A stretch of 64,000 nucleotides of DNA from Candidatus Bathyarchaeia archaeon (GTDB taxonomy: Archaea; Thermoproteota; Bathyarchaeia; Bathyarchaeales; Bathycorpusculaceae). The stretch's first letter is position 1; the number at the start of each line of letters is the position of its first letter. The notes under the pieces were generated by a model. The model had not been told where the DNA came from and did no database searches. It worked only from the letters and a program-made list of their open reading frames with translations. Positions 1,024 to 64,000 of the stretch are shown here, in pieces. The position numbers and the translations under genes are program-made. The DNA lies in the NCBI GenBank assembly GCA_049516875.1, contig JBEKSS010000004.1, positions 107,371 through 171,370 on the forward strand, read 5' to 3'.

Positions 1024-1086
1024 ATGTTGAAATTCTAATCCTTGTGTTTGAGTACTCGATCCGTGATTTTTTTTGGCCCTCAAAAT
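1024..1086. repeat. Dispersed ~60-bp repeat, related to the copies at 50010-50220
   Basis: The 19-mer TCCTTGTGTTTGAGTACTC is identical at 1039-1057 and 50027-50045, and both are followed by TCCGTGATTT. Confidence 0.7.
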
Positions 1087-1120
1087 GATGACTTTGCACA
1101 AAGATCAAATCATCAATGCA

Positions 1121-1309
1121 TTACGGTCTCGCAAGAAATATTTCACGTGCATACCTTCTGGCATCCTTCCAGACCAATCTAAACAAGCCAGACTTTGACC
1201 CGAACGATATGGGAACGGCTACGGCGTAGTCGACGTGAAGGGCATAGCCATAGTCGTCTGCTACTTCCACAAAAACGAATAAATCCGGCATCTCTGCTTT
1301 GTGAGACAT
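1121..1309 (-). CDS. small hypothetical protein (possibly a remnant)
   Basis: 62-aa ORF with ATG and an upstream GAGGGG, downstream of tRNA-Val. No recognisable motif. Confidence 0.3.
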   Translation of the reverse strand: MSHKAEMPDLFVFVEVADDYGYALHVDYAVAVPISFGSKSGLFRLVWKDARRYAREIFLARP

Positions 1310-1399
1310 GATTCCCCTCGTTTCGGTCAGTTTCTTCTCTTCTCAGCTTCGTCGGGGAGCTAGAGAAAGAAAACAGGTTATCATTCCGCAGGAGATAGG

Positions 1400-1474
1400 T
1401 GGGCCGGACCGGACTCGAACCGGCGACCTTTGGCTCGTAAAGCCAATGTCCTAACCAAGCTAGACGACCGGCCC
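1400..1474 (-). tRNA. tRNA-Val(TAC)
   Basis: Reverse complement GGGCCGG TC GTCT AGCTTGGTTA GGAC A TTGGC TT TAC GA GCCAA AGGTC GCCGG TTCGAGT CCGGT CCGGCCC A folds as a cloverleaf with anticodon TAC. Confidence 0.95.
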
Positions 1475-1523
1475 ATGTTTCATTAAAGAATGAGGGTTCG
1501 GCTTTAACATTTTTCCCGAGGTT

Positions 1524-2510
1524 CTAAGCGAACTGCTTTTCTGCGAGAATTCTTTCGATGACGTCGACAGGGTTCTGAAGGTCGGCGAGTTTGGCTTTTA
1601 CGTCGACCTTCTTTCCTAACTGTTGCCTTGCACACGCAAGGATTCTCGATGGGTTTACTATGAAGAGGGGGAATCCTTTCTTTGAGAGGTATTCGTTGAC
1701 TTGAAGGCGGCCAAATGCGGATATCACTATGCTTGGGGTTCCTTGCAATGCTGCTTCTCTCGCGATTGTGCCTCCCACGCCCACGACTAGGTCGGATTGT
1801 GCGGCGAGGCTCGCTGAATCTACGAATTCGTGTATAACTATGAACTTTCTGCTCTTCGGTTTGCTGTAGCGTGGAAGGAAAACAACGGTGCCAAGGGAGG
1901 AGAGCTTGTTTGCGACGTCAATTGTGACATCGGTTGTTCCAAGAGCGTACGTTGCTTTCATTTCTGACTGTCTTACCACGATCAAGGGTCTCTTGAATTC
2001 GAATTTTTTCTTTCGGTTAGGGTCTTTTGTCCAGGCAACTTCGTCAACGCCTTTGAACTGGACAATCTTCTGGGTCCCGTATTTTTTGAAGATGGTCTTG
2101 GGAATGGCTTCCGAGATGAGAAGAGTGCTTGCTAGCGGTATCGTCAATCTGTTGACCGCTACGGCGTAAGGCGTGTCAGCTGTCACGATTGTTGGGATTT
2201 TCAAACCAAAAGCTGACCGACATAGCTCGACTGACTGGTGCGAGACGGCCACCTCGGGTGGGTGGTCTTTGAACATCCTTGAAAACTGGAGCATGCGATT
2301 AGCGCTTTCTTCCAAGCGCGTGGAAAGGGATGTTGGATTGTATTTGCCAACGACGATTGGTTTTTCGCCGAGGGTTTTTGCCAAAGCCACAGTGTCAGGG
2401 TGCTCCCTGATTGTGAATATGACCTCGTGACCCAGCTTCCTCAGGCGCCTTGCAATCGCCGTGCCATACCTAACGTGTTTACCGGTACAAGCATCATACC
2501 AAACTTTCAT
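1524..2510 (-). CDS. DUF354-family putative glycosyltransferase (GT-B)
   Basis: N-terminal MKVWYDACTGKHVRY and the GVGGTIAREAALQGTPSI motif are typical of DUF354. Confidence 0.75.
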   Translation of the reverse strand: MKVWYDACTGKHVRYGTAIARRLRKLGHEVIFTIREHPDTVALAKTLGEKPIVVGKYNPTSLSTRLEESANRMLQFSRMFKDHPPEVAVSHQSVELCRSAFGLKIPTIVTADTPYAVAVNRLTIPLASTLLISEAIPKTIFKKYGTQKIVQFKGVDEVAWTKDPNRKKKFEFKRPLIVVRQSEMKATYALGTTDVTIDVANKLSSLGTVVFLPRYSKPKSRKFIVIHEFVDSASLAAQSDLVVGVGGTIAREAALQGTPSIVISAFGRLQVNEYLSKKGFPLFIVNPSRILACARQQLGKKVDVKAKLADLQNPVDVIERILAEKQFA

Positions 2511-2514
2511 CGTT

Positions 2515-3018
2515 TCACCGCAGCCTCTTCTCAACGAAGGCCTTCTTCTTGTCTTCGTACTCCTTCCTTGTCATCATCGGCTTTGATGGAACGTCCTTCA
2601 CCACCGTCGCCGGCGCGACGTTCTTGGTTACTACGCTTCCAGCTGCGACAACTGCGCCTTCGCCGACTGTTACGTTGGGCAGTATCACTGCGCACCCGCC
2701 TATCACAGCGTTGTCCTCTATGGTAGGCGGGGTTAAGCGTACGCTTACTGGAAACTTGTCGTTTAGAAGAGTGCTGTTGGGAGCTATGAACACGTTGTTG
2801 CCGATTTTGCAGCCGTTTGAAATCGTCACGTGGGTCTGTATGTTACAGTTCCTTCCTATTATGACGTTCTTGCCTATGTCACAGAAGCTGCCGATGCGAG
2901 TTTCATCACCGATTCGTGTGTTGTCGCCTATCACAACGTAGTTCCACACAACCACGCCATCGCCGAATCTGACGTTTTTTCCGAGTATTACTCCCTTGCC
3001 CATCGTTGGCTTCGGCAT
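2515..3018 (-). CDS. hexapeptide-repeat N-acetyltransferase (WbpD/WlbB-like)
   Basis: IGDNTRIGDETRIG left-handed beta-helix repeats; NDKFP motif; VVAAGSVVTKNV. Confidence 0.85.
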   Translation of the reverse strand: MPKPTMGKGVILGKNVRFGDGVVVWNYVVIGDNTRIGDETRIGSFCDIGKNVIIGRNCNIQTHVTISNGCKIGNNVFIAPNSTLLNDKFPVSVRLTPPTIEDNAVIGGCAVILPNVTVGEGAVVAAGSVVTKNVAPATVVKDVPSKPMMTRKEYEDKKKAFVEKRLR

Positions 3019-3096
3019 GCTTCCACTCTGCCTTTAGGGTTTTAGAGCGTATGAAGTTTAAATAGTTTGATGGTTCATTTTTTTGCTGCTGGTAGG

Positions 3097-3940
3097 ATGT
3101 GGAAAGAGTTGGTGGGAGAGAAAGTTTTAGTTGTGGGTCTGGGCGAGGTGGGTCGGCCGTTGTTTGATTTGCTGAAAGAAAACGGACGGTTTACCGTTTA
3201 TGGCCTTGATACAGACAGTGCCAAGATGCGCGAGGTTGGACAGAGTCAAAGTGAGCTACCCTCCGAAGTGGATGTAATGCACGTCTGCCTTCCATGCAAT
3301 GAACAAGACAAATTCGTCAGCATAGTCGTGGGCTACGCGAAAAAGTTCAGCCCCAGACTGTTAATCATCAACAGCACTGTTCCTCCCGGGACAACACTCG
3401 AAGTGAGCAAACACTGCAGATGCCTTGCTGCCCATTCTCCAGTTCGCGGAGTGCACAAGAGGCTTGGAGCACACGAAGTGGGAACTGAAACGTTGGACAA
3501 AATACGTCGGCGGCGTGGATGCAAAGTCAGCGAAAGCCGCCAGCAAGCATTTCCAGAGGCTGGGCTTGAAGATCAAGATCTTGAGAATCCCGTTGGAAAC
3601 AGAGTTGGCAAAACTGTTTGAGACCACTTATAGGGCCTGGATGATCACGTGTTTCCAGGAAATGCACAGAATCTCCAGGCATTTCGATGCACACTTTGAC
3701 GATGTGGCGGATTTCATCGAGGACACGCATCGTGTGAGATTCGACAGGCCCGTGATGTTTCCAGGAGTAATCGGCGGACACTGCATCATCCCCAACACCG
3801 AACTGCTGCTCGGAAGTTACGACTCTGAACTGTTGCGTTACATCTTAAAATCCAATGAAGAGCGAAAAAAGGAAATGAAGGACAAAACTGTTTGTGAAGA
3901 AGTGATAGAGGTAAAAAGAAGATTAGAGAAGGAAACCTGA
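3097..3940 (+). pseudogene. NDP-sugar (UDP-ManNAc/GDP-mannose type) dehydrogenase, frameshifted
   Basis: VVGLGEVG...IINSTVPPGTT...HSPVRGVHK in one frame continues as LEHTKWELKRWTKYVGG...ELAKLFETTYR...IGGHCIIPN in another. One extra G near 3461. Confidence 0.8.
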
Positions 3941-4157
3941 CATCACCAGTTGATTTTCAAGCCCACACATTAGTTGCTCCTCTCTCTTGTGCAGAGAGAA
4001 GAGTTTTCTGATTCTTGCTCTTGCGGCTTGTCTTCTTCTGCATCTGAGCTTGGTGCCTCTTGATTCCCTCTACCGTAGCTTCTACGTCGTGTGTCGCATC
4101 TACTACGCACAAAACGCCAAAACCGCGGCATGATTTATCTTCATTTATGGTGAGGAA

Positions 4158-4760
4158 TTGAGAGTTAAATATGGTTGGGACCTACAGTATCCTGACGCGG
4201 GGTATTGGGATTCCCGAACACCATTGCATATGGGTATGCCGAGATTTTTTCATTTCTACCAAGACCTAAATGATAAAAAGCTTAGAATATTCCTTACTAA
4301 AGAAAGAAAAAAGAAAGATAGAATTTTGGATGCAGGGTGTGGAGAAGGAAGATTCGTTGCTTATGCAGACGTAGGTGTGGATTTTAGCAAAGGTATGCTT
4401 CAAAGAGCCAAAAGACGCCATCAAGATGGAAGTTTTGTTCGCGCTTCGCTTTTGCATCTGCCTTTTGGAGACAAGGCATTTTCGACCGCCTTTACAGTAG
4501 ATGTTTTGCTGCATATCCCACCGGAAAAAAGGAAGGACGCCTCAAGAGAGCTGAATAGAGTTTCAGATAATTGTTACCATTTTTTGGCTGAACACAGAAC
4601 TGTCACCCCTTTTATATTTGAACTCTTCAAAACGTTACCTTCTAAGCTTTTCGGGCGGTTAATCCCGTACATAACTGTATTTTTTGCATTTCAATTCGAT
4701 AGACTCAGAAAGCTAGAAATTGATTCGGAGCCTGAAGTACTAAAAAAGTTGGCGAGTTGA
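4158..4760 (+). CDS. class I SAM-dependent methyltransferase
   Basis: ILDAGCGEG, GVDFSKGML, LPFGDKAFS and VLLHI motifs. Confidence 0.85.
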   Translation: MRVKYGWDLQYPDAGYWDSRTPLHMGMPRFFHFYQDLNDKKLRIFLTKERKKKDRILDAGCGEGRFVAYADVGVDFSKGMLQRAKRRHQDGSFVRASLLHLPFGDKAFSTAFTVDVLLHIPPEKRKDASRELNRVSDNCYHFLAEHRTVTPFIFELFKTLPSKLFGRLIPYITVFFAFQFDRLRKLEIDSEPEVLKKLAS

Positions 4761-4838
4761 TTCTCCTGCTAATCAGAATTTGTTGCGGAGAACACATGTG
4801 TCTGATACATTTTTAGTTCTTGTGCAAGTCTTCAGTTG

Positions 4839-5855
4839 TTACATTATTTTCGATATTTCTTCAGTAAGCCTCTTTTCTCTGATTTCTAGAGAAAAATATT
4901 CTTGAATTCTTTTTCTTGCCTTTTCCCCTAAATCAGAATTTAAAGCTTCTTTCACCGCACTTGCTGTCGCCTTGGGATTGTTATAAGGTACATAAAAACC
5001 AGTGTCAGCCACAATCTCAGGAAGAGAGTATAATCTCGTAACCACGGGAACGCATTGACAAGACATAGCCTCAGCCAATGCTACCCCGAAACTTTCTTGG
5101 GTTGAAAGCTGGCAATACACTTTAGCTCTTCCGTAATAATCTAGTAGCTGTTCATCAGAGACATATCCTCTAAAAACGACATTACGACCAGCTATTTGTT
5201 TAAGATGTTCAACAGAGTCATCGTATTTTCCAAGGAGTGCAAAAGTGGCTTCAGGCACATACTTAGAAGCTTCAACGAAAGTATCCAACCTTTTTTTGTT
5301 TATCGTAGATTCAGATATTGTACCGACTGTTATGACCAGGTTCTCTTTCTTTCCCGAAGGACTGAACTTTTCTGTGTCGACACAATTGTAAACCAAGCTG
5401 AGATTTTTAGGCTTAGCGAAAAACAAGATTTCTCTAATGCTAGACTTAGAAACAGCCAAGATTTTACTTGCATTCTCTAGTATGAACTTGACTTCAAAAC
5501 GACCATACGGGGACAACAAAAGTCCGTAGTTTATCTCTGGAACACAAGCCACTTCATATCCACCAATGACTATTATGCTCTTCTTTCGTAGAAGTTTACA
5601 GAAAAGTACGATAAAAAAGCCATCCAAGGTAGCCCACCAAGAAAAAGCTACATCGCACCACAAGATACCTTTAAGCAATTTAAGAAACGCAAGAGGGCTC
5701 CTACCTCTTTCAGGAACGAGAAACGTTGTAATCTTCAGCTTCTTAACATTGAAATGTCTTTCGATTATCTCCATATCTCTGAGAACAAACGAAGACAAAC
5801 TTGAATAAACGAAGAGAATCTTCGGTCTCTCTTTTACACTCAACACATGCATCAC
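4839..5855 (-). CDS. GT4 glycosyltransferase
   Basis: YNCVDTEKF and ESFGVALAEAMSC (EX7E) motifs. Confidence 0.9.
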   Translation of the reverse strand: MMHVLSVKERPKILFVYSSLSSFVLRDMEIIERHFNVKKLKITTFLVPERGRSPLAFLKLLKGILWCDVAFSWWATLDGFFIVLFCKLLRKKSIIVIGGYEVACVPEINYGLLLSPYGRFEVKFILENASKILAVSKSSIREILFFAKPKNLSLVYNCVDTEKFSPSGKKENLVITVGTISESTINKKRLDTFVEASKYVPEATFALLGKYDDSVEHLKQIAGRNVVFRGYVSDEQLLDYYGRAKVYCQLSTQESFGVALAEAMSCQCVPVVTRLYSLPEIVADTGFYVPYNNPKATASAVKEALNSDLGEKARKRIQEYFSLEIREKRLTEEISKIM

Positions 5856-6098
5856 TGTGTTCTCTCTTACATTATGGTAGCGTAAAATGTCTTAATTGTA
5901 TATTAATTGGTTCTTCATTCACTCACCCAAGCTATTGCCATTCTAGAACCTGTTTCAGTAGATTCATCTTAGTTTCTAAGTCAAACGAGCGATTGGTTGG
6001 AAGTAATAGCAGTGAGGTATTTAAGAAGGAGAGCATCTCAATTATGCTCTCCCACGGGCAAACATAAGTACTACTGGAAAACGCAAGGTAGGCCCTAA

Positions 6099-7211
6099 AT
6101 GCGGATATGCTATTTGGCAAATGCAGCAAGTGTTCACACACACAGATGGACACGGTACTTCGTTGAAAGGGGACACGAAGTCCATGTGATCTCCTTCGAA
6201 AACGCCCAAATCGCAGGGGCCATCGTCCACGTTTTGAAACTTCCACTGCTCGTTAGAAGCGCCACTTTCCCCCTCAAAATAGCATCTATCTACAGAATAA
6301 GAGCTCTAATCAAGAGAATAGAACCAGACATCCTGCACGCACATTACGTAACTAACTATGGACTTTTCGGCGCTCTGTGCAACTTCAGACCTTTCGTAAT
6401 CACAGCCTGGGGTTCAGATGTTTTAATCGTTCCCGAAGCGCGCCTTATATCAACCATAAAGGGGTTCATTGCGAAATACACGCTGAAAAAGGCGGATTCA
6501 ATAACGTGCGATGCTCGCCACATGAAGGACGCCATGGTGAGGCTTGGGGTTTCTCCAGACAATGTTAACATCATCTTCTTCGGGGTTGACACTAGAAAAT
6601 TCAGTCCCGGACAGAAAAGTGAAACACTTAGAGCCCAATTGGGCGTTTATGACTCGCCTGCCGTCATAAGCCTAAGAAATCTTGAATCTATATATGACAT
6701 CGAATCGTTGATCAAGTCCGCACCTTTAGTGCTGAAGGAAATTCCCAGAACAAAGTTCATAATCGCTGGAAAAGGTTCTGAAGAAAAAAAACTGAGAGAG
6801 CTAGCCAAATCTTTAGGCGTTTCAGAAAGCGTGAAGTTCATCGGTTTCATACAAAACGATAAACTCCCCGAGTATTTGAATTCCATGGACGTGTACGTTT
6901 CCACATCTCTCTCAGACGCTGGAATTGCAGCCAGCACGGCAGAAGCGATGGCTTGCGGACTGCCAGTGATTGTTACTGATGCTGCTGATAACAGAATGTG
7001 GGTAGAGGAAGGTGTGAACGGATTTGTTATTCCGGTAAGAGATCCGAAATTGTTGGCTGAAAGAATTATCCATTTATTGAAAAACGAAGACATAAGAAGG
7101 AGATTTGGAGATATTAACAGAAAAGTGATCGAGGAGAGAAACAATTATTATAAAGAGATGGCGAAGATGGAAGAGATTTACAAAAAACTAGTCGAGGAGT
7201 ATGAAAAATGA
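6099..7211 (+). CDS. GT4 glycosyltransferase
   Basis: PDILHAHY, WGSDV, GVDTRKF and EAMACGLPVIVTD motifs. Confidence 0.9.
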   Translation: MRICYLANAASVHTHRWTRYFVERGHEVHVISFENAQIAGAIVHVLKLPLLVRSATFPLKIASIYRIRALIKRIEPDILHAHYVTNYGLFGALCNFRPFVITAWGSDVLIVPEARLISTIKGFIAKYTLKKADSITCDARHMKDAMVRLGVSPDNVNIIFFGVDTRKFSPGQKSETLRAQLGVYDSPAVISLRNLESIYDIESLIKSAPLVLKEIPRTKFIIAGKGSEEKKLRELAKSLGVSESVKFIGFIQNDKLPEYLNSMDVYVSTSLSDAGIAASTAEAMACGLPVIVTDAADNRMWVEEGVNGFVIPVRDPKLLAERIIHLLKNEDIRRRFGDINRKVIEERNNYYKEMAKMEEIYKKLVEEYEK

Positions 7212-55249: not shown

Positions 55250-56074
55250 TCATTTTGGCCTTTGGAGCTTCAAGAGGACGTTAATTGAAGACAGAAAAGT
55301 GTAGAACATCCAATCGTACCATGCGTCTTTGTCATATTCCCCTTGTTGCTCACGGTTATGATGGCGTATGTCAAAGTTGTTTATTATGTTGAAAAGGTCA
55401 GAATCATCTTTGGCCGGAAGTGTAACGCCTTCTTTCCTCAAATATTCCAAGATATCAGCCAACGTTCTGACAGCATCTTTCTTGTCATCCAAAGTCGCAT
55501 TATGCCTTCTATACTTGATTATTGCCCCGCGTCTTCTATCATCTATGTTTTTCGGGTCACTTGTTATCATCACTTCTTCCGATATGGACTCCAAACCAGT
55601 TGGCGCGATTTTTAGAATTTCACCTGTTACAGACAGTTCATATCCTGACTCGTAGTTTCTTAGAATACTGTTCATCTCTTCACGATATCTCGCCTTTCCG
55701 CTTGCTTCATCATAATCTTCACCGTGCCATCCACAATCATTCCATTTATGATACCATTTTGTTTTGGGTTCTGACGCATAATCATAGAGAAATTCAATAA
55801 CAGAAAACAACTTTAGCTCGTCATAACCATTAATGTTCTGTTGAATGGGCCATAAGTTGTGTATTCTCAATTTCATAGAAAAGAATAATTCAGGGTCAGA
55901 TCCCCACGCTCCGGTTATGACTTCTTTATCTACGCACTTGAAACCTGTTGCTTCTCGAAAATACAAGTCCTTTTCAAGCTCTTCAAACTTGAACAGAAAG
56001 AATTTCTTTAGTGTTTCAAAATTCAACGGTTCGGGCTTCACTGCTCCTCTTCTTTCAGCATAGTACTTCCTCAT
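55250..56074 (-). CDS. AbiJ-like protein (N-terminal domain plus HEPN-like C-terminus)
   Basis: LFSVIEFLYD...N.ILRNYESGYEL (AbiJ-NTD-like); KKDAVRTLADILE...NNFDIRHH. Confidence 0.6.
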   Translation of the reverse strand: MRKYYAERRGAVKPEPLNFETLKKFFLFKFEELEKDLYFREATGFKCVDKEVITGAWGSDPELFFSMKLRIHNLWPIQQNINGYDELKLFSVIEFLYDYASEPKTKWYHKWNDCGWHGEDYDEASGKARYREEMNSILRNYESGYELSVTGEILKIAPTGLESISEEVMITSDPKNIDDRRRGAIIKYRRHNATLDDKKDAVRTLADILEYLRKEGVTLPAKDDSDLFNIINNFDIRHHNREQQGEYDKDAWYDWMFYTFLSSINVLLKLQRPK

Positions 56075-56165
56075 GGTATCGCCCCCTAAGAGAAATACCA
56101 GCTCAACAGATTATAGATTTTTGCTTAATTGTTACTGTGATGACATTTGACCTGAGAAAAGCGCA

Positions 56166-56490
56166 TTATTTCCAATGTAGTAATCTAAGAAATTCAGCCC
56201 ATATTTGATAATGAAAGGTTCGATAGTAATCATGCTTTTCTCCAACGAATATCATGTCATAGACTCTCTTCATTCTCTTGTTGAACTTTGCGTCATTTTC
56301 GCAAATTCCCTCCAATATTCGTTCCCATAACTGAGGTCGGTAGCGTGCGATATTGGAAGCTACAAATAGCAGCAGAACATGTGTGTCTGGGTATGCACCT
56401 TGTTCTGGGAACTTTGAATGAAACTCTTCCCCAAAATCCTTGGAGTCAAAATCCATCATCGAAAGCAAATTTGTTTTACCTGCTTCTATT
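56166..56490 (-). pseudogene. C-terminal fragment of a YaaC-like (HEPN-related) gene
   Basis: LLFVASNIARYRPQLWERIL motif. The fragment begins at a TTAGCGCGCGCG motif. Confidence 0.55.
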
Positions 56491-56600
56491 CGCGCGCGCT
56501 AAGACAGAAGAATGGAAAAAGGGAAAATGGGTTAGTGAGTGAAGACCACTAGGTAATCTTGAAATCAGACTTTTATACCTAAACATTAAACAAGTTAGAA

Positions 56601-56909
56601 GTGAGAAGGTTTCAAATGAGCAAAGAGTTTGACCCAATAGTGAAGAAACTGGACTTTTTGGCTGAGAGAATCAATGCCCTGACTCTAGTCATTGCTTGCA
56701 AGCCAAATAGTGAACAAATCAACAAACTCTTGAAGGGAGAAAGCCTAAAAGAACAGATTCGCATTCTCAAAGAATGGGATTTTTCCAATGAAATAATAGC
56801 GTCTATGATAGGCACTACTCCAGAAAGCGTGAGAGTCACGTCATTCAAAAAGAAGCCTATAGGAAAAAAAGAGAAACAACTCAAACCAGAACAGAAGGTT
56901 AGTCAATGA
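56601..56909 (+). CDS. small coiled-coil plus HTH protein (1)
   Basis: KEQIRILKEWDFSNEIIASMIGTTPESVRVT HTH; basic tail. Confidence 0.7.
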   Translation: MRRFQMSKEFDPIVKKLDFLAERINALTLVIACKPNSEQINKLLKGESLKEQIRILKEWDFSNEIIASMIGTTPESVRVTSFKKKPIGKKEKQLKPEQKVSQ

Positions 56910-57211
56910 GCAAAGACCAGAAAGACCTTCTGAAAAGACTTGATGTTTTGAACAATAACATTGAGTTACTTGGGAAAATCATTGCTGTCAATGTGGGAAA
57001 AGAAACATTCTTCAAGGAAAACAAGCAAAAAGAACAACAAATCGCTTTTCTAGCTGAATTGGGATTACCACGCAACATCATTGCATCAATGGTGGTCACA
57101 ACACCACTTACTGTTAGCGTCACGAAAAGCCAAAAGAAGCCAAAGAAAAAGCCCCTTCCAGATAAGGCAGAACCTAAAGAAGTAAGTGCGGAGAAGACTA
57201 GCGGAAATTGA
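56906..57211 (+). CDS. small coiled-coil plus HTH protein (2), paralogue of 56601
   Basis: EQQIAFLAELGLPRNIIASMVVTTPLTVSVT; ATGA overlap with the previous gene. Confidence 0.7.
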   Translation: MSKDQKDLLKRLDVLNNNIELLGKIIAVNVGKETFFKENKQKEQQIAFLAELGLPRNIIASMVVTTPLTVSVTKSQKKPKKKPLPDKAEPKEVSAEKTSGN

Positions 57212-57978
57212 ACAAGGTATTCCAAGCCATATGTAAGAAAACATGGAAAACTGAGCCGAAAACACCGCGAGACACAATCTATCACAGAATTGCGGCATTC
57301 AAAAGGAAATCAAACATAGCTTCGAAAAAACTTTCAGAAATTGTATATGCCTACGAAGTAATGCGGATTGCTGTTCAAAAACTCGACATAAGTAAAGAGG
57401 AACTTGAAGAACTACAAGAATGGTTGAGCAAAAAACCGCAACAACAGAAGGACATCAGACAAGAAAGAAAAATAATTGTGACTAACAAAATCCGAAAAAA
57501 GGTCGTTGACGCTTTCGGTCTTCCTTCCAATATCTGGAATGAAGCCAGCAGAATGGCTAAGGCATATCCAGACATGTATCTTTTTGAGAATCTGGTAAGA
57601 CATGCTGTAATGACTGTGCTTGAGAAAAAATACCAAAAAGATTGGTGGAACGTGCCTAATGTAGCCTCAAATGAAATCAAGAGAGACGTGGAGAAACGAA
57701 AAAGGCAAGAGAAAGAAAACAGATGGCATTCCAAGAGAGGAGTCCACGAGATTTTCTATACCAACTTTGGTGACCTTAGCCGCATAGTCGCTACTAACAT
57801 TAAGGAATTCAAGAAGGTATTCGGAGACCTTCAAATCGAAGCTGAGATGAAAAAGCTGGAACTTTCAAGAAACATCATTGCACACAACAACCCTTTACCG
57901 CCAAAAGAAACAAAGAGAATCGAAATCAGTCTGGATGACCTAAGAAAACAACTAGACGCATACGTTAAGAACAAGTGA
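57208..57978 (+). CDS. Swt1-family HEPN domain protein
   Basis: YLFENLVR...KYQKDWW...FYTNFGDL..I...SRNIIAHNN (R-x4-H); TTGA overlap with the previous gene. Confidence 0.8.
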   Translation: MNKVFQAICKKTWKTEPKTPRDTIYHRIAAFKRKSNIASKKLSEIVYAYEVMRIAVQKLDISKEELEELQEWLSKKPQQQKDIRQERKIIVTNKIRKKVVDAFGLPSNIWNEASRMAKAYPDMYLFENLVRHAVMTVLEKKYQKDWWNVPNVASNEIKRDVEKRKRQEKENRWHSKRGVHEIFYTNFGDLSRIVATNIKEFKKVFGDLQIEAEMKKLELSRNIIAHNNPLPPKETKRIEISLDDLRKQLDAYVKNK

Positions 57979-57984
57979 TGAGTC

Positions 57985-58018
57985 TTTGGTTTTGCGGAAG
58001 AGTTATAACTGAATCATG
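57985..58018 (+). repeat. cassette-junction repeat, copy F (opposite orientation)
   Basis: TTTGGTTTTGCGGAAGAGTTATAACTGAATCATG, 6 nt after the HEPN stop. Confidence 0.8.
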
Positions 58019-58056
58019 AACACATCTGACTGTTTAATTCTTGGGGAGGTGATAGG

Positions 58057-58521
58057 TTGAAGTTTAGTAACGTGATTATAGCTACGGTTTCTTTGGTTCT
58101 GTTGGGTCTAATCCTTAATGCTTTCTTGATGGTTGGATTAATATCAATGAATAATGACAGGCTGGCTGACATGCTTTCTTTCATTATTGCCGTTCTGGTG
58201 TCTTCACTTGTTGTTGGTTACGTGTTCGCTCTAAGGATTCAAGAGGACTCCAGAATCAAAGCAATAGGAGTTATTGACGTTCTCTCTACCTTCACGGTCC
58301 TCGTATTCGATTCAATCTGGATATCCAACACCTACGGAGGCGAGTGGTTCACGGAAGACCTAAACAATGCGTTCAACACGAGTGGATGGACACCTTATGA
58401 ATATGCTGCCCATACGGCACTCTTAGTAAGCATTGTTACTATCATTGGATTCGTGGTTATTTTCATCGGGCTCTATGTTGGCTCAATGCTCAGAAAATCT
58501 TCTGCAAAGACCAAAGAATAG
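58057..58521 (+). CDS. 4-TM hypothetical membrane protein
   Basis: GGAGGTGA RBS, TTG start, four hydrophobic segments, C-terminal GLYVGSMLRK. Confidence 0.75.
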   Translation: MKFSNVIIATVSLVLLGLILNAFLMVGLISMNNDRLADMLSFIIAVLVSSLVVGYVFALRIQEDSRIKAIGVIDVLSTFTVLVFDSIWISNTYGGEWFTEDLNNAFNTSGWTPYEYAAHTALLVSIVTIIGFVVIFIGLYVGSMLRKSSAKTKE

Positions 58522-58683
58522 CAAAACCATCATAACCTAGCGCGCGCTCGCGCTTACGAAGGCATTCAAAAAGAGTAATCCGAAATGGGCTGAGTTTTTC
58601 AAAATCAAAGACGAGTGGGTATCTCTATTCGTTCCGCTTAAGGAAGAGAATTATAAAGTTGGGGGTTAAATGTATGCCTAGGG

Positions 58684-59298
58684 GTGAAAGAAAACGTGAA
58701 GAACAAGATTGATTTGGGAGCTGGAGTGGCGTCATATCCGATGCCTGTCGTTCTGGTGGGGGCGATTGTAAAGGGGAAACCAAATTTCCTGGCAAATGGT
58801 TTCTTTGTTAACGCTGGCTACAAACCGCCGAAAGTAGCAGCGGTGCTGAACAAAGCGCACTACACAAACCAGGGAATAAGGGAGAATAAGACGTTCAGCG
58901 TATGCATTCCGTCGGAGAGTATGGTGGAAGCCACAGACTATTGTGGACTCGTCTCTGGCTCTAGGGTGGATAAGTCAAGGGTTTTTGACGTGTTTTACGG
59001 CAAGTTGAAGACCGCGCCTATGATAGCAGAGTGTCCCGTGAACCTCGAGTGCAAACTAGACAGGATTGTAGATACTGGCCAGCAGCATGAGATGTTCATC
59101 GGAGAAGTTGTATCCACTTACACGGAGGAAAATTATCTGACGGATGGAACAGTGGATCTCCGAAAGACTAAACCATTCGTGCTAGCACCGATTCTACTAG
59201 CGCGCGCGCTGCTACACAAAGACTTAATGTATTACACTTTGGGCAAACCTAAAGGTAAAGCCTTCAGTGTGGGCAAAAACTTCAAGACTAATAAATGA
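58684..59298 (+). CDS. flavin reductase-family (flavoredoxin-like) protein
   Basis: YPMPVVLVG, DYCGLVSG...DKS, APMIAECPVNLEC and HEMFIGEV motifs. Confidence 0.88.
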   Translation: MKENVKNKIDLGAGVASYPMPVVLVGAIVKGKPNFLANGFFVNAGYKPPKVAAVLNKAHYTNQGIRENKTFSVCIPSESMVEATDYCGLVSGSRVDKSRVFDVFYGKLKTAPMIAECPVNLECKLDRIVDTGQQHEMFIGEVVSTYTEENYLTDGTVDLRKTKPFVLAPILLARALLHKDLMYYTLGKPKGKAFSVGKNFKTNK

Positions 59299-59947
59299 AA
59301 CCTCATGACTGTATTGAATAGGCCAGAAACTCCAAACTCACTCACTGGCGATGTCTTCATAGAAAAACCAGAACTACGCATAGCCTAAAGAGCAGAGCCT
59401 CTTCTTAGACCCGTTTTTCTGTTTTACACTTTCGACATATTCTTTATTAGCTACGAGAACTAAGCTATTGATGGTATATCAACGCTTATGACGGTTTGCT
59501 CCCGTAGACCCAATGTTTTTTTGGCTTTAGGCTAATTCTGATATACCAATCAAGAATATCCGTAATCTCATACTTAAACATAGTAGACGACAACACAAAC
59601 TTAGGGGCTGCAAAAAAGCGCGCGCGCCCCGAGCGCCAAACAGCCTATTTGTTCTTTGCGATTCTGTGAGTTCTATGTAGCCGCAGTTTTCGCAGTAGCG
59701 CGCTAGACCAAAGGAAGATATAAAATAATAAAAATGAAGATGGGCAGGAAAGAAGAAACTAATACAGTGAGAATTTTCCCCCATTCTGAGATGGGCAGCC
59801 AGCGTTTGAACGCATCGAATTTGCGCGCGCGCATAAAGCGTATAAGCAAACTGCAAAAAAATAGCAATCTTGATTTCTCCAGATTAGAGGAGAGAAGCGC
59901 GCGCTAAGCCAGTTTGACCAATTGATCCTCAAAAAAAGGTAGCACTG

Positions 59948-61225
59948 ATGAACAAGAACAAGTCAAGGGATGAGCTGGACCCCAAACGAAGATCTCATTG
60001 GTTTTCAAGTATTCCTTTGAAGGCGGGGTTCTCAAACTTGTCCTCCCAAGTATATGCTGTCGTGTTTTTGGGTTTTCTCCTGTCGCTTGGAGGTAACATT
60101 GCCTACTCGTATCTTGCCATGTTCTTGGCTGGAAAAACGCAGACAGGTGGATTAGAGTTTGATCCCTCGATCGTTGGTCTGATGCTGACAATTGGTGGGC
60201 TAGCAAGTACTTTCACAATGCCCTTGGCCGGACACCTCTGTGACAGGTTCGGGAGAAGAAAGTTGATGTTGTCATCACTGATTACGCAGATTGTGCTGAC
60301 CCTTGGCTTTGCGTACGCTCACAGTTACGCAGAATTTCTACTGCTCTACGTGGCACTTGCGATCATGGGTGCTTTTTACTCCCCCGCGTACAGTGCGATG
60401 ATCGCGGACCTCGTTGAACCCGAAAAACGAGAGCAAGTCTACGGTCTAAGCTACATGATCGGCAACGTGGGCTGGATGGTTGGATATCCAATCGGCGGTT
60501 TGATCGCAAGCGTGAGCGGGTATTCTCCTCTGTTCATTTATTGCGCAGCTTTCACATCTGCAGCGGCAGGTGGTTTCGCCTTGTTAATCAAGGAGTCGAA
60601 GCCTGGTATTTACACGAAATCTTCACACATTGTTGCTTCGATATTCAAGGACAGAACCTTTCTCCTCTTCTGCCTAATGTTCTTCTTGACAAACTTTGTC
60701 TACGCACAGTTTTACAACCTGTTATCTGTCTACACCGAGCATCTAGGCTTTGAGCCATACGTTTTTGGCACTTTGGCATCTATGGCCGGTGCCATCGTGG
60801 TGACGCTGCAGATACCGATCCGGCAAGGCACTGTGCGAATAGGCCCGACGAAAGCCTTCATAGTCGCTCAGACGTTATTTGCGTTGGGATTTGTTTTCTT
60901 CATGTTTGCTTCGAACTTTGCCCAATTTGCAGTTGCGATTGCCGTTCTGACTCTGGGGGAAATAATGTTCTATCCGGCGGCTTCCGCTTTTGCGGTAAAT
61001 CTTGCACCTGTAGAAATGCGGGGAAAATATATTGCTCTGACGGCACTTTTCTCCGGAATAGGAGGTTCAACAGCATCGCTGACGATCTTCAGTATTTATG
61101 GATTGTTGGGTAACAAAAGCTTGATCTGGGGGATTTGGGGAACCCTTGGGTTCGCGATTCTCCCTGGCTATTTGATACTATTCAAGATGGCTAAGAGAAA
61201 CAGATCAATTCCGACGGGGCAATGA
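59948..61225 (+). CDS. MFS transporter
   Basis: GHLCDRFGRRK motif A; about 12 TMs; APVEMRGKY. Confidence 0.9.
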   Translation: MNKNKSRDELDPKRRSHWFSSIPLKAGFSNLSSQVYAVVFLGFLLSLGGNIAYSYLAMFLAGKTQTGGLEFDPSIVGLMLTIGGLASTFTMPLAGHLCDRFGRRKLMLSSLITQIVLTLGFAYAHSYAEFLLLYVALAIMGAFYSPAYSAMIADLVEPEKREQVYGLSYMIGNVGWMVGYPIGGLIASVSGYSPLFIYCAAFTSAAAGGFALLIKESKPGIYTKSSHIVASIFKDRTFLLFCLMFFLTNFVYAQFYNLLSVYTEHLGFEPYVFGTLASMAGAIVVTLQIPIRQGTVRIGPTKAFIVAQTLFALGFVFFMFASNFAQFAVAIAVLTLGEIMFYPAASAFAVNLAPVEMRGKYIALTALFSGIGGSTASLTIFSIYGLLGNKSLIWGIWGTLGFAILPGYLILFKMAKRNRSIPTGQ

Positions 61226-61315
61226 GTCGGGGCTTGTTAGTAAGGACGCGCAATGACTATTTTGTTTGTTTTGCATGTATGGATGTAAAGAGAGAGAAGG
61301 AAGGCGCGTGCGCTA

Positions 61316-61413
61316 ATCCTCGCCTGATGCCTCAGATCCAACATATAATAGACAACACCAACCAACACGCCTGCAGCAGCAACAACAGCTGAGATCTCTG
61401 TAATGTCAACCAT
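61316..61413 (-). pseudogene. N-terminal fragment of a DUF4760-like membrane-anchored protein
   Basis: MVDITEISAVVAAAGVLVGVVYYMLDLRHQAR, then a break at TTAGCGCACGCGCC. Family assignment is from recall only. Confidence 0.55.
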
Positions 61414-61444
61414 TCATAACACCAAATCATGCAGTTTGTTTCGT

Positions 61445-61478
61445 TTCGGTTAGGCTATAACTTTTCCGCAAAACCAAA
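61445..61478 (-). repeat. cassette-junction repeat, copy E
   Basis: Reverse complement TTTGGTTTTGCGGAAAAGTTATAGCCTAACCGAA. Confidence 0.9.
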
Positions 61479-61490
61479 AACTGGCTCTGT

Positions 61491-62049
61491 TCATGCGGTT
61501 TTGGTTAGTATTTTTGGTTCTTTCCATTCCTCTCTGAGGATGCTGAGGAGATAGAAATCATTCCATACTCCTCTCCACAAGCTGGTTTTTTCGCATAGTT
61601 CCTTCTATTTGGAAACCTACTTTCTTCAAAGTCTTCTGTGCCGCCTTGTTTCTTACATTTGTGGCTGTTTGTATACGGACGATGTCTTTGCTGAGAAACA
61701 GGTAATCAACCATTAGTTGAGTCGCTTCTGCTCCGTAATCTTTTCCTCTCTCGCTGGGAACCAAGAAACAGCCGAATTCCAGAGTCCCGTATGGCTGATT
61801 GGTAAATTGCCACATAAGCCCTATTTTAGTTCCGTCCTTCTTCTGAATTATGAACGGGTTGTCCATCACCGCTTTTTGAAAGTCGTTGGGATAATTATCA
61901 ATCAATTGCGTCAAAACCCATTTTGGAATCTGCTCAAAAACAGGATGCGTGTATTCCCCCCAGAAATCTAAGTCATTAGCACACGCAAATTGAAAATCAA
62001 CGTCCTCTTTCTCTACCTTTCTCAAATTCACAAGTTTACCTTCAAGCAA
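61491..62049 (-). pseudogene. RimJ/RimL-type GNAT, frameshift near the C-terminus
   Basis: MLEGKLVNLR...ERGKDYG...NKAAQKTLKKVGF. An extra G near 61576; the shifted frame ends RGVWNDFYLLSILREEWKEPKILTKTA*. Confidence 0.8.
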
Positions 62050-62079
62050 CTTAATTCACCAGTCCACGCAGTTACTAGG

Positions 62080-62095
62080 GGTTCACCTATAACTC
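62080..62095 (-). repeat. cassette-junction repeat, half copy D
   Basis: Reverse complement GAGTTATAGGTGAACC is fused directly to the stop codon of 62096..62656. Confidence 0.6.
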
Positions 62096-62656
62096 TCAAT
62101 GTTTGAATAGGTATTCCATCAATATCTGATCGGTGTACGTTCCGTCTGAGAACTTGATGCCTCTTGTCAGTCTCCCAGCCTGTTTGAAACCACATTTCTC
62201 ATATACGTGAAAGGCTCTCTTGTTGCTTGCGTAGACTCCGAGCTGGAGGATTTCAACTCCATGCTGCTTGGCAATCTTGACAAACTCTTTCGTCAATATC
62301 GTTCCAAGTCCCAGATTACGAAAGTTCTTGCTGATGAATATGTTGTAATGGGCAACGTGCGCATATACGTGACCCTCTGGGTCAGGTACAACGTTGGCGC
62401 CTCCAACAACTTTGCCATCAACTCTTGCAATCAGAAAAAAGTCCTGTTTTAGTATTCCTGTTTTAGTATTCTGTTCAAACCACGCGAGTTGACCTTTCGA
62501 GGTATACGGCTCATAAGATCCGTATATTCCCTCTCTGATTACGTCGTTCGCTACCTCCAGAATCTCTGGAAGGTCTTTCTTCCTCGCCCAATCAAGTACA
62601 GCTTCACGACCGTCAACCAAGTTAACAATCTTGTAGACCATTGCAACGAACACCAC
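62096..62656 (-). CDS. GNAT acetyltransferase
   Basis: FRNLGLG and NKRAFHVYEKCGF motifs. Confidence 0.88.
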   Translation of the reverse strand: MVFVAMVYKIVNLVDGREAVLDWARKKDLPEILEVANDVIREGIYGSYEPYTSKGQLAWFEQNTKTGILKQDFFLIARVDGKVVGGANVVPDPEGHVYAHVAHYNIFISKNFRNLGLGTILTKEFVKIAKQHGVEILQLGVYASNKRAFHVYEKCGFKQAGRLTRGIKFSDGTYTDQILMEYLFKH

Positions 62657-62727
62657 TTTTGGATATCGAAATAGCGCAAATCAATTTTAAGGTTTTTGCA
62701 GAGGGGAGAAAGATAAAACTTTACCTT

Positions 62728-62761
62728 TTGGGTTCAGCTATAACTTTTCCGCAAAACCAGA
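62728..62761 (-). repeat. cassette-junction repeat, copy C
   Basis: Reverse complement TCTGGTTTTGCGGAAAAGTTATAGCTGAACCCAA. Confidence 0.9.
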
Positions 62762-62773
62762 AACTGACTATCT

Positions 62774-63301
62774 TCAAGCGGTTTTTGTCAGTATTTTTGG
62801 TTCTTTCCATTCCTCTCTGAGAATGCCATAGACACAACTGTCTACCCATTCTCCTCTGATGAAAGCACTCTTGCGAATTATCCCTTCTTTTGTGAACCCT
62901 GATTTCTCTAACACTCTTTGAGAAGCTTTGTTTCTAATGCTGGTATTGGCTTGAACTCGAACTATGTTTCTTGACATAAAGAGATAATCAACCATAATCT
63001 GAACAGCTTCTGTGCAGTAACCTTTGCCTCTTTCGTCTGGAAAGATCGAATATCCTATTTCAAGCATACTGTCCCTAGGATAGTGACCTATAGAGCCAAT
63101 TCTGCTTCCATCCTTTTTCTCAATCAAGAAGGATTTCTCATCTGGACCACGTTTGTCATATCTGTCTTCAAATTCCTTCTTCGAACGTTGAGGATCAAGA
63201 GGTTCAAATTCGTCAGTTTGTGGGTTATTGACCCATTCAATAAGTGACAGTAAATCCTCTTTCTCTATCACTCTCAAATTCACGGTCTTACCTTCAAGCA
63301 A
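62774..63301 (-). CDS. RimJ/RimL-type GNAT
   Basis: EIGYSI...ERGKGYCTEA, NKASQRVLEKSGF; ends REEWKEPKILTKTA. Confidence 0.9.
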   Translation of the reverse strand: MLEGKTVNLRVIEKEDLLSLIEWVNNPQTDEFEPLDPQRSKKEFEDRYDKRGPDEKSFLIEKKDGSRIGSIGHYPRDSMLEIGYSIFPDERGKGYCTEAVQIMVDYLFMSRNIVRVQANTSIRNKASQRVLEKSGFTKEGIIRKSAFIRGEWVDSCVYGILREEWKEPKILTKTA

Positions 63302-63325
63302 CTCAGCTCACCAAACCACGATTAG

Positions 63326-63359
63326 TTCGGTTCAGCTATAACTTTTCCGCAAAACCAAA
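63326..63359 (-). repeat. cassette-junction repeat, copy B
   Basis: Reverse complement TTTGGTTTTGCGGAAAAGTTATAGCTGAACCGAA. Confidence 0.9.
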
Positions 63360-63419
63360 AGGCAACTTGTGGGGTGAAGGTAAAGTCATATAAGAACCTG
63401 AGTGGAAATGTAGGTTTGG

Positions 63420-63824
63420 GTGATTCTTGTGGATGCCCTGAGCTATTTTACCTTTGTGAGGGATATCCGTTTCAGGCTACCTCTGTCTGATGAGCCTGCC
63501 CCCTACTGTGTCGATAAACATGTTGTTCTAAAAACTCTACTATCTTCCCTTGGTTTCAACGTTAGATATGCCCTTTGCCGATGGTCATGGAGCAGTCTTG
63601 ACTTGCCAGAATCTCTAAAGCAAATTCCGCACGAAGACCGTGCAGTTCACGTATATCTCGAAGTCTATAACAAGGAACAAGCGAGATGGATGACCGTAGA
63701 CGCCACATGGGACAAAGGATTAGCTTCTAAGCTACCAGTGTCTGAATGGGATGGAAGAAGCGACACAACACTTGCAGTCAAGCCGACGGAAAGCCTCCAA
63801 CCCATAGAAAGCCAAGAAGATTAG
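63420..63824 (+). CDS. transglutaminase-like protein
   Basis: YCVDKH, HVYLEV and VDATWD supply a Cys-His-Asp triad. Confidence 0.75.
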   Translation: MILVDALSYFTFVRDIRFRLPLSDEPAPYCVDKHVVLKTLLSSLGFNVRYALCRWSWSSLDLPESLKQIPHEDRAVHVYLEVYNKEQARWMTVDATWDKGLASKLPVSEWDGRSDTTLAVKPTESLQPIESQED

Positions 63825-63849
63825 GCAGTCGGCAGAAAGCGTAGTCTGT

Positions 63850-63883
63850 TTCGGTTCGGCTATAACTTTTCCGCAAGACCAAA
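63850..63883 (-). repeat. cassette-junction repeat, copy A
   Basis: Reverse complement TTTGGTCTTGCGGAAAAGTTATAGCCGAACCGAA. Confidence 0.9.
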
Positions 63884-63895
63884 AACTGTCTCTGT

Positions 63896-64000
63896 TCAGG
63901 CAATCTTTGTCAGTATCTTTGGCTCTTTCCATTCTTCTCTTAGGATGCTGTATAAAATTATGTCTGTCCATTCTCCTCGAATAAAGCTACGTTTCCGCAT
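63896..64000 (-). CDS. C-terminus of a third RimJ-type GNAT (starts beyond the window)
   Basis: MRKRSFIRGEWTDIILYSILREEWKEPKILTKIA*. Confidence 0.8.
   Translation of the reverse strand: MRKRSFIRGEWTDIILYSILREEWKEPKILTKIA

Follow-up and report, generated by a model that had tools for sequence, protein, structure and literature searches.

A short promoter-like motif at the borders of single-gene units in Bathyarchaeia

The locus

The DNA studied here, hereafter the window, is a stretch of 64,000 nucleotides (nt) from a Candidatus Bathyarchaeia archaeon (GenBank assembly GCA_049516875.1, contig JBEKSS010000004.1). It corresponds to G000:C4:107371-171370, where G000 is the source assembly (2.43 Mb, 97% complete); handles beginning with G, C and L denote genomes, contigs and loci. 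Towards the right end of the window, copies of a short motif lie between genes of different families, and a first-pass annotation, made from the sequence alone, had proposed that these copies delimit the units of an integron-analogous shuffling system. We refer to the motif by an 18-mer, TTGCGGAAAAGTTATAGC, by a 16-mer, GCGGAAAAGTTATAGC, and by its strongly conserved part of about 22 nt, which consists of GGTTTT and the 16-mer (GGTTTTGCGGAAAAGTTATAGC). The copies in the window are as follows.

57985-58019, plus strand: variant copy with two mismatches in the 18-mer (57992-58009); the gene of a protein with four transmembrane segments (4-TM) starts 47 nt further on
61445-61479, minus strand: copy with an exact 18-mer (61454-61471), between the stop codon of RimJ' and the stump of a DUF4760-type gene
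62080-62095, minus strand: half copy, GAGTTATAGGTGAACC, with the TATA side and right arm only, fused to the stop codon of a GNAT gene (62096-62098)
62728-62762, minus strand: copy with an exact 18-mer (62737-62754)
63326-63360, minus strand: copy with an exact 18-mer (63335-63352), divergent from a transglutaminase-like gene
63850-63884, minus strand: copy with an exact 18-mer (63859-63876), with no co-oriented gene behind it

A scan with TTGCGGAAAAGTTATAGC gave five matches in the window with up to three mismatches against 0.13 expected, and none of 100 shuffles reached five. The five full copies and the half copy that had been reported were all found, at the places given for them. They are associated with the following genes and elements, in which amino acids are abbreviated aa, open reading frame ORF and the B recognition element of archaeal promoters BRE.

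57208-57978, plus strand: HEPN (Swt1-like) protein, 256 aa, PF18731 HEPN_Swt1 (E 9.3e-8), upstream of the plus-strand copy
58057-58521, plus strand: 4-TM membrane protein, 154 aa, a motif-headed unit with no Pfam family, nor any for a paralogue
61237-61413, minus strand: 58-aa remnant of a DUF4760-type gene, with the 61445 copy at its head; a full-length paralogue matches PF15956 (E 5.3e-12)
61558-62049, minus strand: RimJ-like GNAT (RimJ', 163 aa), PF13302 Acetyltransf_3 (E 9.8e-13)
62096-62656, minus strand: GNAT of the Acetyltransf_1 type (GNAT-186, 181-186 aa), PF00583 (E 1.1e-18)
62774-63301, minus strand: RimJ-like GNAT (RimJ-2, 175 aa), PF13302 Acetyltransf_3 (E 8e-26)
63376-63394, plus strand: another BRE/TATA-like element, GAAGGTAAAGTCATATAAG, unlike that of the motif and about 27 nt ahead of the transglutaminase-like ORF; predicted promoter
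63420-63824, plus strand: inverted transglutaminase-core-like gene, 134 aa, PF01841 Transglut_core (E 6.6e-4, below the Pfam cut-off)
63896-64000, minus strand: 3' end of RimJ-b, a gene that goes on at G000:C7:1-146 and was aligned with its copies in G001 and G003

The gene families named by the first-pass annotation were thus recovered for the RimJ GNATs, the other GNAT and the HEPN protein, and for the DUF4760 gene through its paralogue, while the transglutaminase stayed below the cut-off and the 4-TM gene was left without a Pfam family. Its statement that each pair of copies brackets exactly one gene is correct if the half copy is counted; otherwise two genes lie between the copies at 61445 and 62728. 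The copy at 63326 has retained its left arm, though its upstream side has no co-oriented gene. To the right of the copy at 63850 lie about 25 nt resembling the 5' untranslated region of DUF4760 genes, followed by the 3' end of the inverted gene, an adjacency backed by locus L160 as far as L160 extends. Strings resembling GAAGGTAAAGTCATATAAG (GGTAAAGTnnTAT) are present at other junctions. The DUF4760-type paralogues have about 155 aa against the 58 aa of the stump in the window, which ends 12 nt from the stop codon of a convergent MFS transporter gene (59948-61225). The variant motif and the 4-TM gene have homologous counterparts as a unit, found three times in an array of another genome.

The transglutaminase-like gene has 165 aa in L160. 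The window is without 93 nt (31 codons) at 63820/63821 that are present in L160, otherwise 100% identical, and in L100, which is from another species. We also used metagenome reads, in the form of Logan contigs from four DNA runs. Run contigs part from the window at the same point, as shown in X2, X5 and X8 by unaligned letters or by a joint of zero length, which fits the same 93 nt. Either the window is a deletion variant or its assembly is wrong here.

The plus-strand copy is immediately preceded, at 55250-57978, by an AbiJ_NTD4-like protein (E 2.4e-6, below the cut-off) and the HEPN_Swt1 protein, a neighbourhood that looks defence-like. Contigs of G000 break within array genes, with C7:1-146 belonging with C4:171250-171370 and C3:238471-238758 with C4:1-184. 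By homology with other genomes, the end of C4 joins the start of C7 (RimJ-b), and the end of C3 probably joins the start of C4 (a zinc-ribbon unit).

Two further kinds of repeat were observed. Alternating (GC)n is abundant in G000, where GCGCGCGC occurs 388 times against about 23 expected from base composition; the window holds 29 such runs of at least 6 nt (e.g., at 58540, 59200, 59618, 59698, 59823 and 59897), some of them inside ORFs, and no more than a weak a...t preference is seen beside them. Another repeat, ttttctgttctaC(G/A)CTTTCGACATATTCTT, lies at 59417-59450 of the window (G000:C4:166797). An 18-nt pattern of it has 15 matches with up to three mismatches in G000, about ten of them convincing, and in other genomes this repeat frequently stands just before the motif. 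The depth of metagenome contigs is very high at 59204-59470 of the window.

Structure of the motif

We pooled 245 unique copies from G000 and the other loci, 207 of which have a co-oriented ORF within 130 nt. Conservation extends from about -10 to +6 around GCGGAAAAGTTATAGC, that is, over some 32 nt, with the consensus ttttnGGTTTTGCGGAAAAGTTATAGCtGAAcc. Of the conserved 34-bp site proposed in the first-pass annotation, a core of about 22 nt is strongly conserved and the outer arms are weaker. In 127 of the 207 copies the start codon lies 30-49 nt past the 16-mer, and many starts in the first set of 83 copies are preceded by a GGTGA-type Shine-Dalgarno sequence. GCCAG and TTTTTGGTTTT often come after the stop codon of a co-oriented upstream gene; when the upstream gene is divergent, the motif is usually kept from TTGCGG onward and the T-rich arm is lost.

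Archaeal core promoters have a purine-rich BRE directly 5' of an 8-bp TATA element, and oligo-T runs act as terminators. The position of the motif agrees with such a promoter, as its BRE/TATA-like part lies before the gene and in the same orientation. Similar strings stand at the matching place before tRNA genes of G000 (e.g., ccGAAAgcTCTAAAT). Upstream of a tRNA-Val(TAC) gene (window ~1398-1530, minus strand; G000:C4:108768) we found GGGAAAAATGTTAAAGCCGAACC, a string that resembles the motif in diverged form, down to the GCCGAACC part that follows the TATA element. Taken together, the motif may best be described as a putative BRE/TATA promoter preceded by an oligo-T terminator, and the presence of a T-run and of BRE/TATA-like elements in the site, already noted in the first-pass annotation, is borne out.

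The consensus shows partial dyad symmetry, but without compensatory changes. Pairs nearest the centre are G-C and C-G, followed by T-T or T-C mismatches; the centre is asymmetric and 12 nt long, and only the outer parts of the arms are palindromic. Over 18 pairs in the 245 copies, arm pairing had no excess over independent columns (observed minus expected, -0.026 to +0.032). What is conserved across copies is sequence, not structure, and a hairpin or attC-like fold was rejected for lack of covariation. An Rfam scan of 57000-64000 returned no match at E<=1, which bears on attC sites only as far as Rfam contains a model for them. The attC sites of integrons are imperfect inverted repeats that fold as single-stranded DNA, with conserved structure and variable sequence, and carry R''/L''-L'/R' boxes with GTTRRRY. 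As had been claimed, such boxes are absent here: GTTATAG departs from GTTRRRY, and an inverse core is lacking.

In the pooled set of 245 copies, positions of the flanks at or beyond -7 track only the class of the upstream gene and those from about +5 onward only that of the downstream gene, while the 22 nt between them track neither. This is what the first-pass annotation had described from the window for left and right flanks. In a table of upstream against downstream classes, judged by eye only and with no statistical test, the two looked independent, and neighbouring genes appear to assort freely across junctions.

Distribution and cargo

In G000 we counted 27 copies of TTGCGGAAAAGTTATAGC with up to two mismatches, 18 of them exact. 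The numbers at zero, one, two and three mismatches are 18, 5, 4 and 3, against 0, 0, 2 and 7 for a reversed-pattern control, and from four mismatches up true and control counts are similar (36 and 28). Because its mismatch spectrum departs in this way from the control, the motif is a discrete family of near-identical copies and not the top of a graded continuum of promoters. The string AAAAGTTATA occurs 26 times in G000, with GCGG directly before it in 22 cases. Copies cluster at C15:27.9-37 kb, at both ends of C4, at the start of C7 and on C14, and the others are solitary.

At least one match with up to two mismatches is present in 19 of 41 related genomes. All five genomes of the same genus have 9-27 copies, five from other genera of the family have 4-13, and one genome of another family has five, four of which start with A instead of T; most remaining related genomes have none or one. 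The scan of the genome and of other Bathyarchaeia that had been suggested thus places copies in several genera. With one genome per species, the exact 18-mer was found in at least 114 stretches; among the matches listed, 102 are titled as metagenome-assembled genomes (MAGs) of Bathyarchaeota/Bathyarchaeia and 12 are bacterial or other bins, one of which has two copies a RimJ length apart. A virus origin of the motif was ruled against, IMG/VR having a single viral contig with the 18-mer.

Genes of the RimJ-like type occur in 13 of the 41 relatives, in nearly the same genomes as the motif. In three motif-free genomes their upstream regions differ, that of the G025 copy, AAGTCATAAGAGCTGAAG, resembling the motif in diverged form; a RimJ-type promoter that became homogenised and spread in some genera would be in keeping with this. 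The number of TFB (transcription factor B) genes shows no relation to the motif: the motif-rich G002 and G003 have four TFIIB-repeat hits (about two genes), as do most motif-free genomes. A dedicated basal factor was rejected on these counts.

The 207 downstream proteins fall into at least 93 clusters, with 59 RimJ-like GNATs, 21 DUF4760 proteins and about 73 singletons. Pfam matches among them include other GNATs, DinB, SnoaL, SAM methyltransferase, 2'-5' RNA ligase/LigT, NIPSNAP, creatininase and cupin, as well as DUF1059, DUF4037/nucleotidyltransferase, alpha/beta hydrolase, PNPOx-like, cytidine deaminase, HD and DsrE-like proteins. Arrays consist of up to about 15 co-oriented copies, with an inverted gene now and then. 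Ten border or internal ORFs of two arrays encode peptidases, an ArsR-type HTH protein, a ferredoxin, AHSA1, MBL-fold and LigT proteins and two products without a family. That the motif delimits single-gene units is supported, except that some units have it on one side only; at G000:C1:240055, no motif with up to three mismatches follows within 7 kb downstream.

Apparent exchange of units between species

Between different assemblies (all loci and G000) there are 42 unique segment pairs of 150-999 bp with at least 94% identity, against a background identity of 74-83% between G000 and its congeners G001-G003. Single-gene tracts are 94-99% identical across species in otherwise unrelated contexts. 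For 14 events we compared 3 kb on each side and found mostly RimJ-type matches only (65-86%), the exceptions being one neighbouring unit at 90% and one extension at 78%. Among 61 informative tract ends, which are not independent of one another, 26 lie at -25 to +45 of the 18-mer start, compared with 4.8% of random positions. Ends at the 5' side are mostly at -4 to +4 and those at the 3' side mostly at +17 to +27, with others at +36 to +54 or -28 to -48. Tracts run from core to core, and therefore the crossover would lie somewhere in the invariant stretch.

In G000, RimJ-b is divided between C7:1-146 and the final 105 nt of the window; judged by eye, its copies in G000, G001 and G003 hardly differ. 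By megablast these tracts are 94-96% identical, with 95.3% for G001 against G003 and 94.4% for the 5' piece of G000 against G003; in a separate comparison the 3' piece of G000 reaches 90.7-91.6%. G001 and G003 are unrelated to each other in all that lies 5' of GGAAAAG or 3' of TTATAG, and the tract they share ends at the motif on both sides. The inverted transglutaminase-like unit (63350-63822) is 97.9% identical over 474 bp to L100, a contig of another assembly, and at the start of G000:C4 a motif and the zinc-ribbon gene match a genome from another genus at 97% identity.

A metagenome scan with GNAT-186 as the query gave relatives of the window in which gene order could be followed. Two metagenome contigs match the window at 100% identity, one over 2.75 kb and the other over 7.7 kb, and have the same order. 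In L162, which is 96% identical over the GNAT-186 unit, a glycosyltransferase-like gene lies upstream in place of RimJ-2, and the shared tract starts 2 nt before the 18-mer of the 62728 copy and ends 28 nt into the next RimJ. The order in L163 (96%) is divergent gene, motif, GNAT, motif, a 140-aa gene, motif, RimJ' (85%), RimJ and RimJ-2 (88%); at the nucleotide level, RimJ' is 84.9% identical to the RimJ headed by a full motif in L163, and RimJ-2 is 87.9% identical to the copy located downstream of the GNAT there. RimJ-2 is thus upstream of GNAT-186 in the window and downstream of it in L163. The upstream neighbour of the GNAT-186 unit is a different one in each of the window, L162 and L163, and the unit has differing neighbours among relatives in general (L160-L167). 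Comparison of gene order across relatives, recommended by the first-pass annotation, accordingly reveals differences at 85-96% identity: unit order is stable within the strain and fluid between related species.

The half copy at 62080 is a deletion scar, because L163 has a full motif and the extra 140-aa unit at the matching place. The first-pass annotation had used this half copy to place a crossover near G|TT, a conclusion that does not hold for a deletion scar, and two other right halves and four left halves are too few to restore it.

Separately from the motif, two species share a 900-bp segment at 99% identity (G000:C7:234327-235226 and L121:6257-7156). It has no motif close by, and homology is otherwise absent within 3 kb.

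Recombinase genes and breakpoints

The best hit of the integron integrase profile TIGR02249 in G000 scored 39.3 bits against a cut-off of 265. Serine recombinases (PF00239) were not found in G000-G004 and occur in one of the 41 related genomes, the motif-free G007, and the Y1 transposase profile PF01797 had no hit in G000. Tyrosine recombinases are present in 37 of the 41 genomes. G000 has ten hits of this kind, none of the PF00589 matches being on C4, C15 or C7, which hold the main arrays; the first-pass annotation had seen no recombinase gene in the window, and the profile search finds none on the whole 171-kb contig either.

Five further assemblies (G041-G045), some with contigs of 0.9-2.3 Mb, were also searched. 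At G041:C5:119358-119543 a divergent C-terminal fragment of a tyrosine recombinase lies 7 bp from the first copy of a 15-copy array, and similar fragments are near two other copies in G041. No integrase was found within 5 kb of the listed copies in G042 and G043 or within about 4.8 kb in G045, and a search of G000 and G002 at E<=1e-20 found no homologue of the integrase that neighbours copies in G004 and G021. The ten border and internal ORFs mentioned above include no recombinase. A linked recombinase was hence rejected, the search with PF00239, PF00589, TIGR02249, PF01797 and the G004:C11 integrase giving no consistent partner.

Some breakpoints are off the motif. They lie just 5' of the Shine-Dalgarno sequence in RimJ-b of G000 against G001 and in L094 against L024, within conserved RimJ coding sequence in L162, and at the stop codon in the transglutaminase unit. 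Insertions and deletions of units are imprecise relative to the motif. Logan contigs stop at the motif, where depth is 38-6900 against 5-10 elsewhere. Joints between motif copies in the runs, with sides of 19-37 nt and very high depth, were set aside as repeats from many organisms and not as rearrangements or circles.

Possible origins of the arrays

The cassette-like pattern proposed for this locus holds in part, and the integron-like mechanism is not supported. A site-specific system analogous to integrons does not agree with the lack of an integron integrase and a Y1 transposase in G000, of serine recombinases in G000-G004, of a consistently linked tyrosine recombinase and of covariation between the arms, nor with breakpoints off the motif. 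We favour a combined explanation, to which we give about an even chance of being right, in which the motif is a terminator-promoter junction whose 22 nt anchor gene-sized recombination. The oligo-T run would end the upstream transcript and GCGGAAAAG-TTATAGC would be the BRE/TATA core promoter; the start site is predicted 22-27 nt past the TATA element, which would leave a short leader with the GGTGA ribosome site. Each unit would then be one gene with its own promoter. The invariant core of about 22 nt, present at every junction, would serve as portable homology, and recombination between copies, either within a genome or with DNA from related species, would delete, duplicate, reorder or replace single-gene units. 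A newly arrived gene would be expressed wherever it was inserted, and frequent exchange would in turn keep the copies identical. We infer that exchange proceeds by general homologous, partly illegitimate recombination and not by a dedicated recombinase, because breakpoints also lie off the motif and indels are imprecise; the core would simply be the commonest short conserved stretch.

Several observations weigh against this explanation. Anchors of 18-22 nt are short for homologous recombination. The 18 bases that are invariant across genera exceed what a basal promoter normally needs and leave room for a sequence-specific regulator or a recombinase. Many tract ends come from the same few units, and in our own tally one or both ends coincide with the motif in about 11 of some 21 distinct units. 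Some motif copies have an integrase gene or fragment within 0.5-2 kb; there are three such places in G041, a further two in G044 and others in G004:C11, G021:C5 and G001:C9. All three right-half copies, including that of the window, break directly 5' of GTTATAG, and four left-half copies break 2-5 nt into GTTATA, which is a hint of a preferred point in small numbers. Finally, crossovers inside an invariant core cannot be placed, and a single fixed point would be compatible with the data.

An alternative is a true integron analogue, in which a tyrosine recombinase acting in trans (XerA or an integrase) would recognise the inverted arms, cross over in the core and move cassettes of gene plus motif. 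Arrays in which as many as about 15 units share one orientation, apart from an inverted gene here and there, the concentration of tract ends at the motif, free assortment of neighbours and half sites breaking near A|GTTAT would all be expected of it. Tyrosine recombinases are at hand in 37 of the 41 genomes, an integrase fragment stands only 7 bp from a copy at G041:C5:119358 with genes or fragments beside some others, and the cargo would seem to resemble what is reported for integron cassettes. Yet no integron integrase was found in G000 (39 bits against 265), no integrase hit falls on C4, C15 or C7 of G000 or within 5 kb (G042, G043) or about 4.8 kb (G045) of listed copies, and the family adjacent to copies elsewhere was not found in G000 or G002 at E<=1e-20. 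The arms do not covary, and the 12-nt centre is longer than the 6-8 bp usual for tyrosine recombinase sites. Some breakpoints and indels are off the site, and there are one-sided units such as that at G000:C1:240055. We consider this analogue rather unlikely. A variant in which the invariant core is both promoter and crossover site, with a trans-acting tyrosine recombinase (XerA-like or other) moving cassettes of gene and promoter within and between Bathyarchaeia, would be a cassette system so far undescribed in Archaea, every cassette carrying its own signal for expression; it seems to us unlikely too, and a shade more so. On the whole we rank promoter-anchored recombination first and a recombinase in trans second.

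If the motif were only a regulon promoter or operator, bound by a regulator or special basal factor with the inverted arms as operator, the genes would have moved by unrelated means. The promoter position, the partial dyad symmetry of the consensus and a cargo resembling small detoxification and stress enzymes are in line with this, as is an ArsR-type HTH gene that adjoins the G002 array and has a homologue some 6 kb away from the C15 array of G000. This ArsR/HTH_20-DUF7347 gene (L013:2550-3479, in G002; 74-78% identical stretch at about G000:C15:21847-22146) is a possible regulator candidate. However, random transfer breakpoints would not pile up at the motif, where 26 of 61 are found against 4.8% expected; the all-or-none mismatch spectrum is unlike graded operator sets; the 63850 copy, directed at a convergent gene's 3' end, has nothing to drive; and TFB copy number does not follow the motif. 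We therefore doubt that regulation alone accounts for the arrays. It is still less probable that a self-propagating miniature element, similar to miniature inverted-repeat transposable elements (MITEs), repetitive extragenic palindromic (REP) sequences or a "mobile promoter", copied itself before genes. Near-identical copies upstream of non-homologous genes, a patchy spread among genera and the description of putative mobile promoters in bacteria (PMC3575422) speak for it, but the high-identity tracts include genes and not the motif alone, G000 has no Y1 transposase, there was no sign of target duplications or, apart from the weak arms, of terminal repeats, and only one viral contig carries the 18-mer. 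Least probable of all is an artefact of metagenome assemblers joining strains or paralogues at a repeat of 20-35 nt. Logan contigs do break at the motif, at depths of 38-6900 against 5-10, and several contigs of G000 begin or end in arrays. Against this, the two independent metagenome contigs that are 100% identical over 2.75 kb and 7.7 kb span three and four copies, two run contigs bridge two copies with no differences, the RimJ-b tracts are on contigs of 1.4 and 2.0 Mb, and the tract partners are from different assemblies, though perhaps not from different samples.

Comparison with known systems

Integron cassettes are mostly promoterless. In the arrays described here the site lies 5' of each gene and is promoter-like, and unit boundaries are not always at the site. 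It measures about 22-35 nt, unlike the folded attC, and comes with no IntI and no arm covariation. Integron cassette arrays and clusters of attC sites lacking integron integrases (CALINs), archaeal integrons among them, have been described (Ghaly et al. 2022, PMC9668308). These arrays share with ours tandem, mostly co-oriented single-ORF units with a repeated site between them, sites that are more alike within a lineage, arrays without an adjacent integrase, diverse accessory cargo and units common to several taxa (PMC9668308). The main text of that article has no occurrence of "Bathyarch".

Putative mobile promoters were defined by at least 80% identity over at least 50 nt at -150 to -50 of non-paralogous genes, with Correia, ERIC and REPIN elements named and no sharing between archaea and bacteria reported (Nijveen, Matus-Garcia and van Passel 2012, PMC3575422). 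They have in common with the present motif very similar upstream sequences before unrelated genes, across genera, and unknown means of spread (PMC3575422). Here, in contrast, 22-32 nt are conserved at the core promoter itself, short of the threshold of 80% over 50 nt; genes move with the motif and the copies form arrays.

Sites of the dif type have 28 bp, with two 11-bp arms that are palindromic next to a 6-bp centre. The centre of our motif has 12 nt and palindromy is confined to the outer parts of the arms, which differs from the dif architecture. In the pdif/Xer modules of Acinetobacter plasmids (PMC7399989), small gene modules likewise lie between short non-attC sites, and a housekeeping recombinase is believed to move them in trans.

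With archaeal core promoters and oligo-T terminators the motif shares the purine-rich BRE 5' of the TATA element, the distance to the start codon and the T-run after the upstream gene. Atypical of basal promoters are the 18 nt that are exact in most copies across genera and the all-or-none spectrum. Minimal mobile elements exchange small gene blocks by recombination in conserved flanks, and Correia- and REP-type repeats carry promoters or terminators. The present case differs from both in that the conserved flank is the promoter itself, about 22 nt long, in that G000 has no REP/RAYT transposase, and in that the hosts are archaea. In searches of the literature on Bathyarchaeia promoters, with no paper on such promoters among the top ten matches, and on archaeal integrons, we found no description of the motif or of promoter-bounded units in Bathyarchaeia.

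Implications for Bathyarchaeia

Bathyarchaeia are uncultured and abundant in the peat, wetland and sediment samples covered here. To our knowledge, little is known of how they gain and shuffle accessory genes. Here a short promoter-bearing junction marks the borders of gene-sized DNA that is common to species and even genera, and many of the motif-headed proteins are small enzymes of modification or detoxification. For genetic tools in this group, the motif is a candidate strong promoter. Should a dedicated recombinase exist, the arrays would represent a second, non-attC cassette system. If recombination does take place through the promoter, the motif would be a sequence tag for mining the mobile gene pool of Bathyarchaeia, and it would provide a simple route by which an incoming gene becomes both insertable and expressed.

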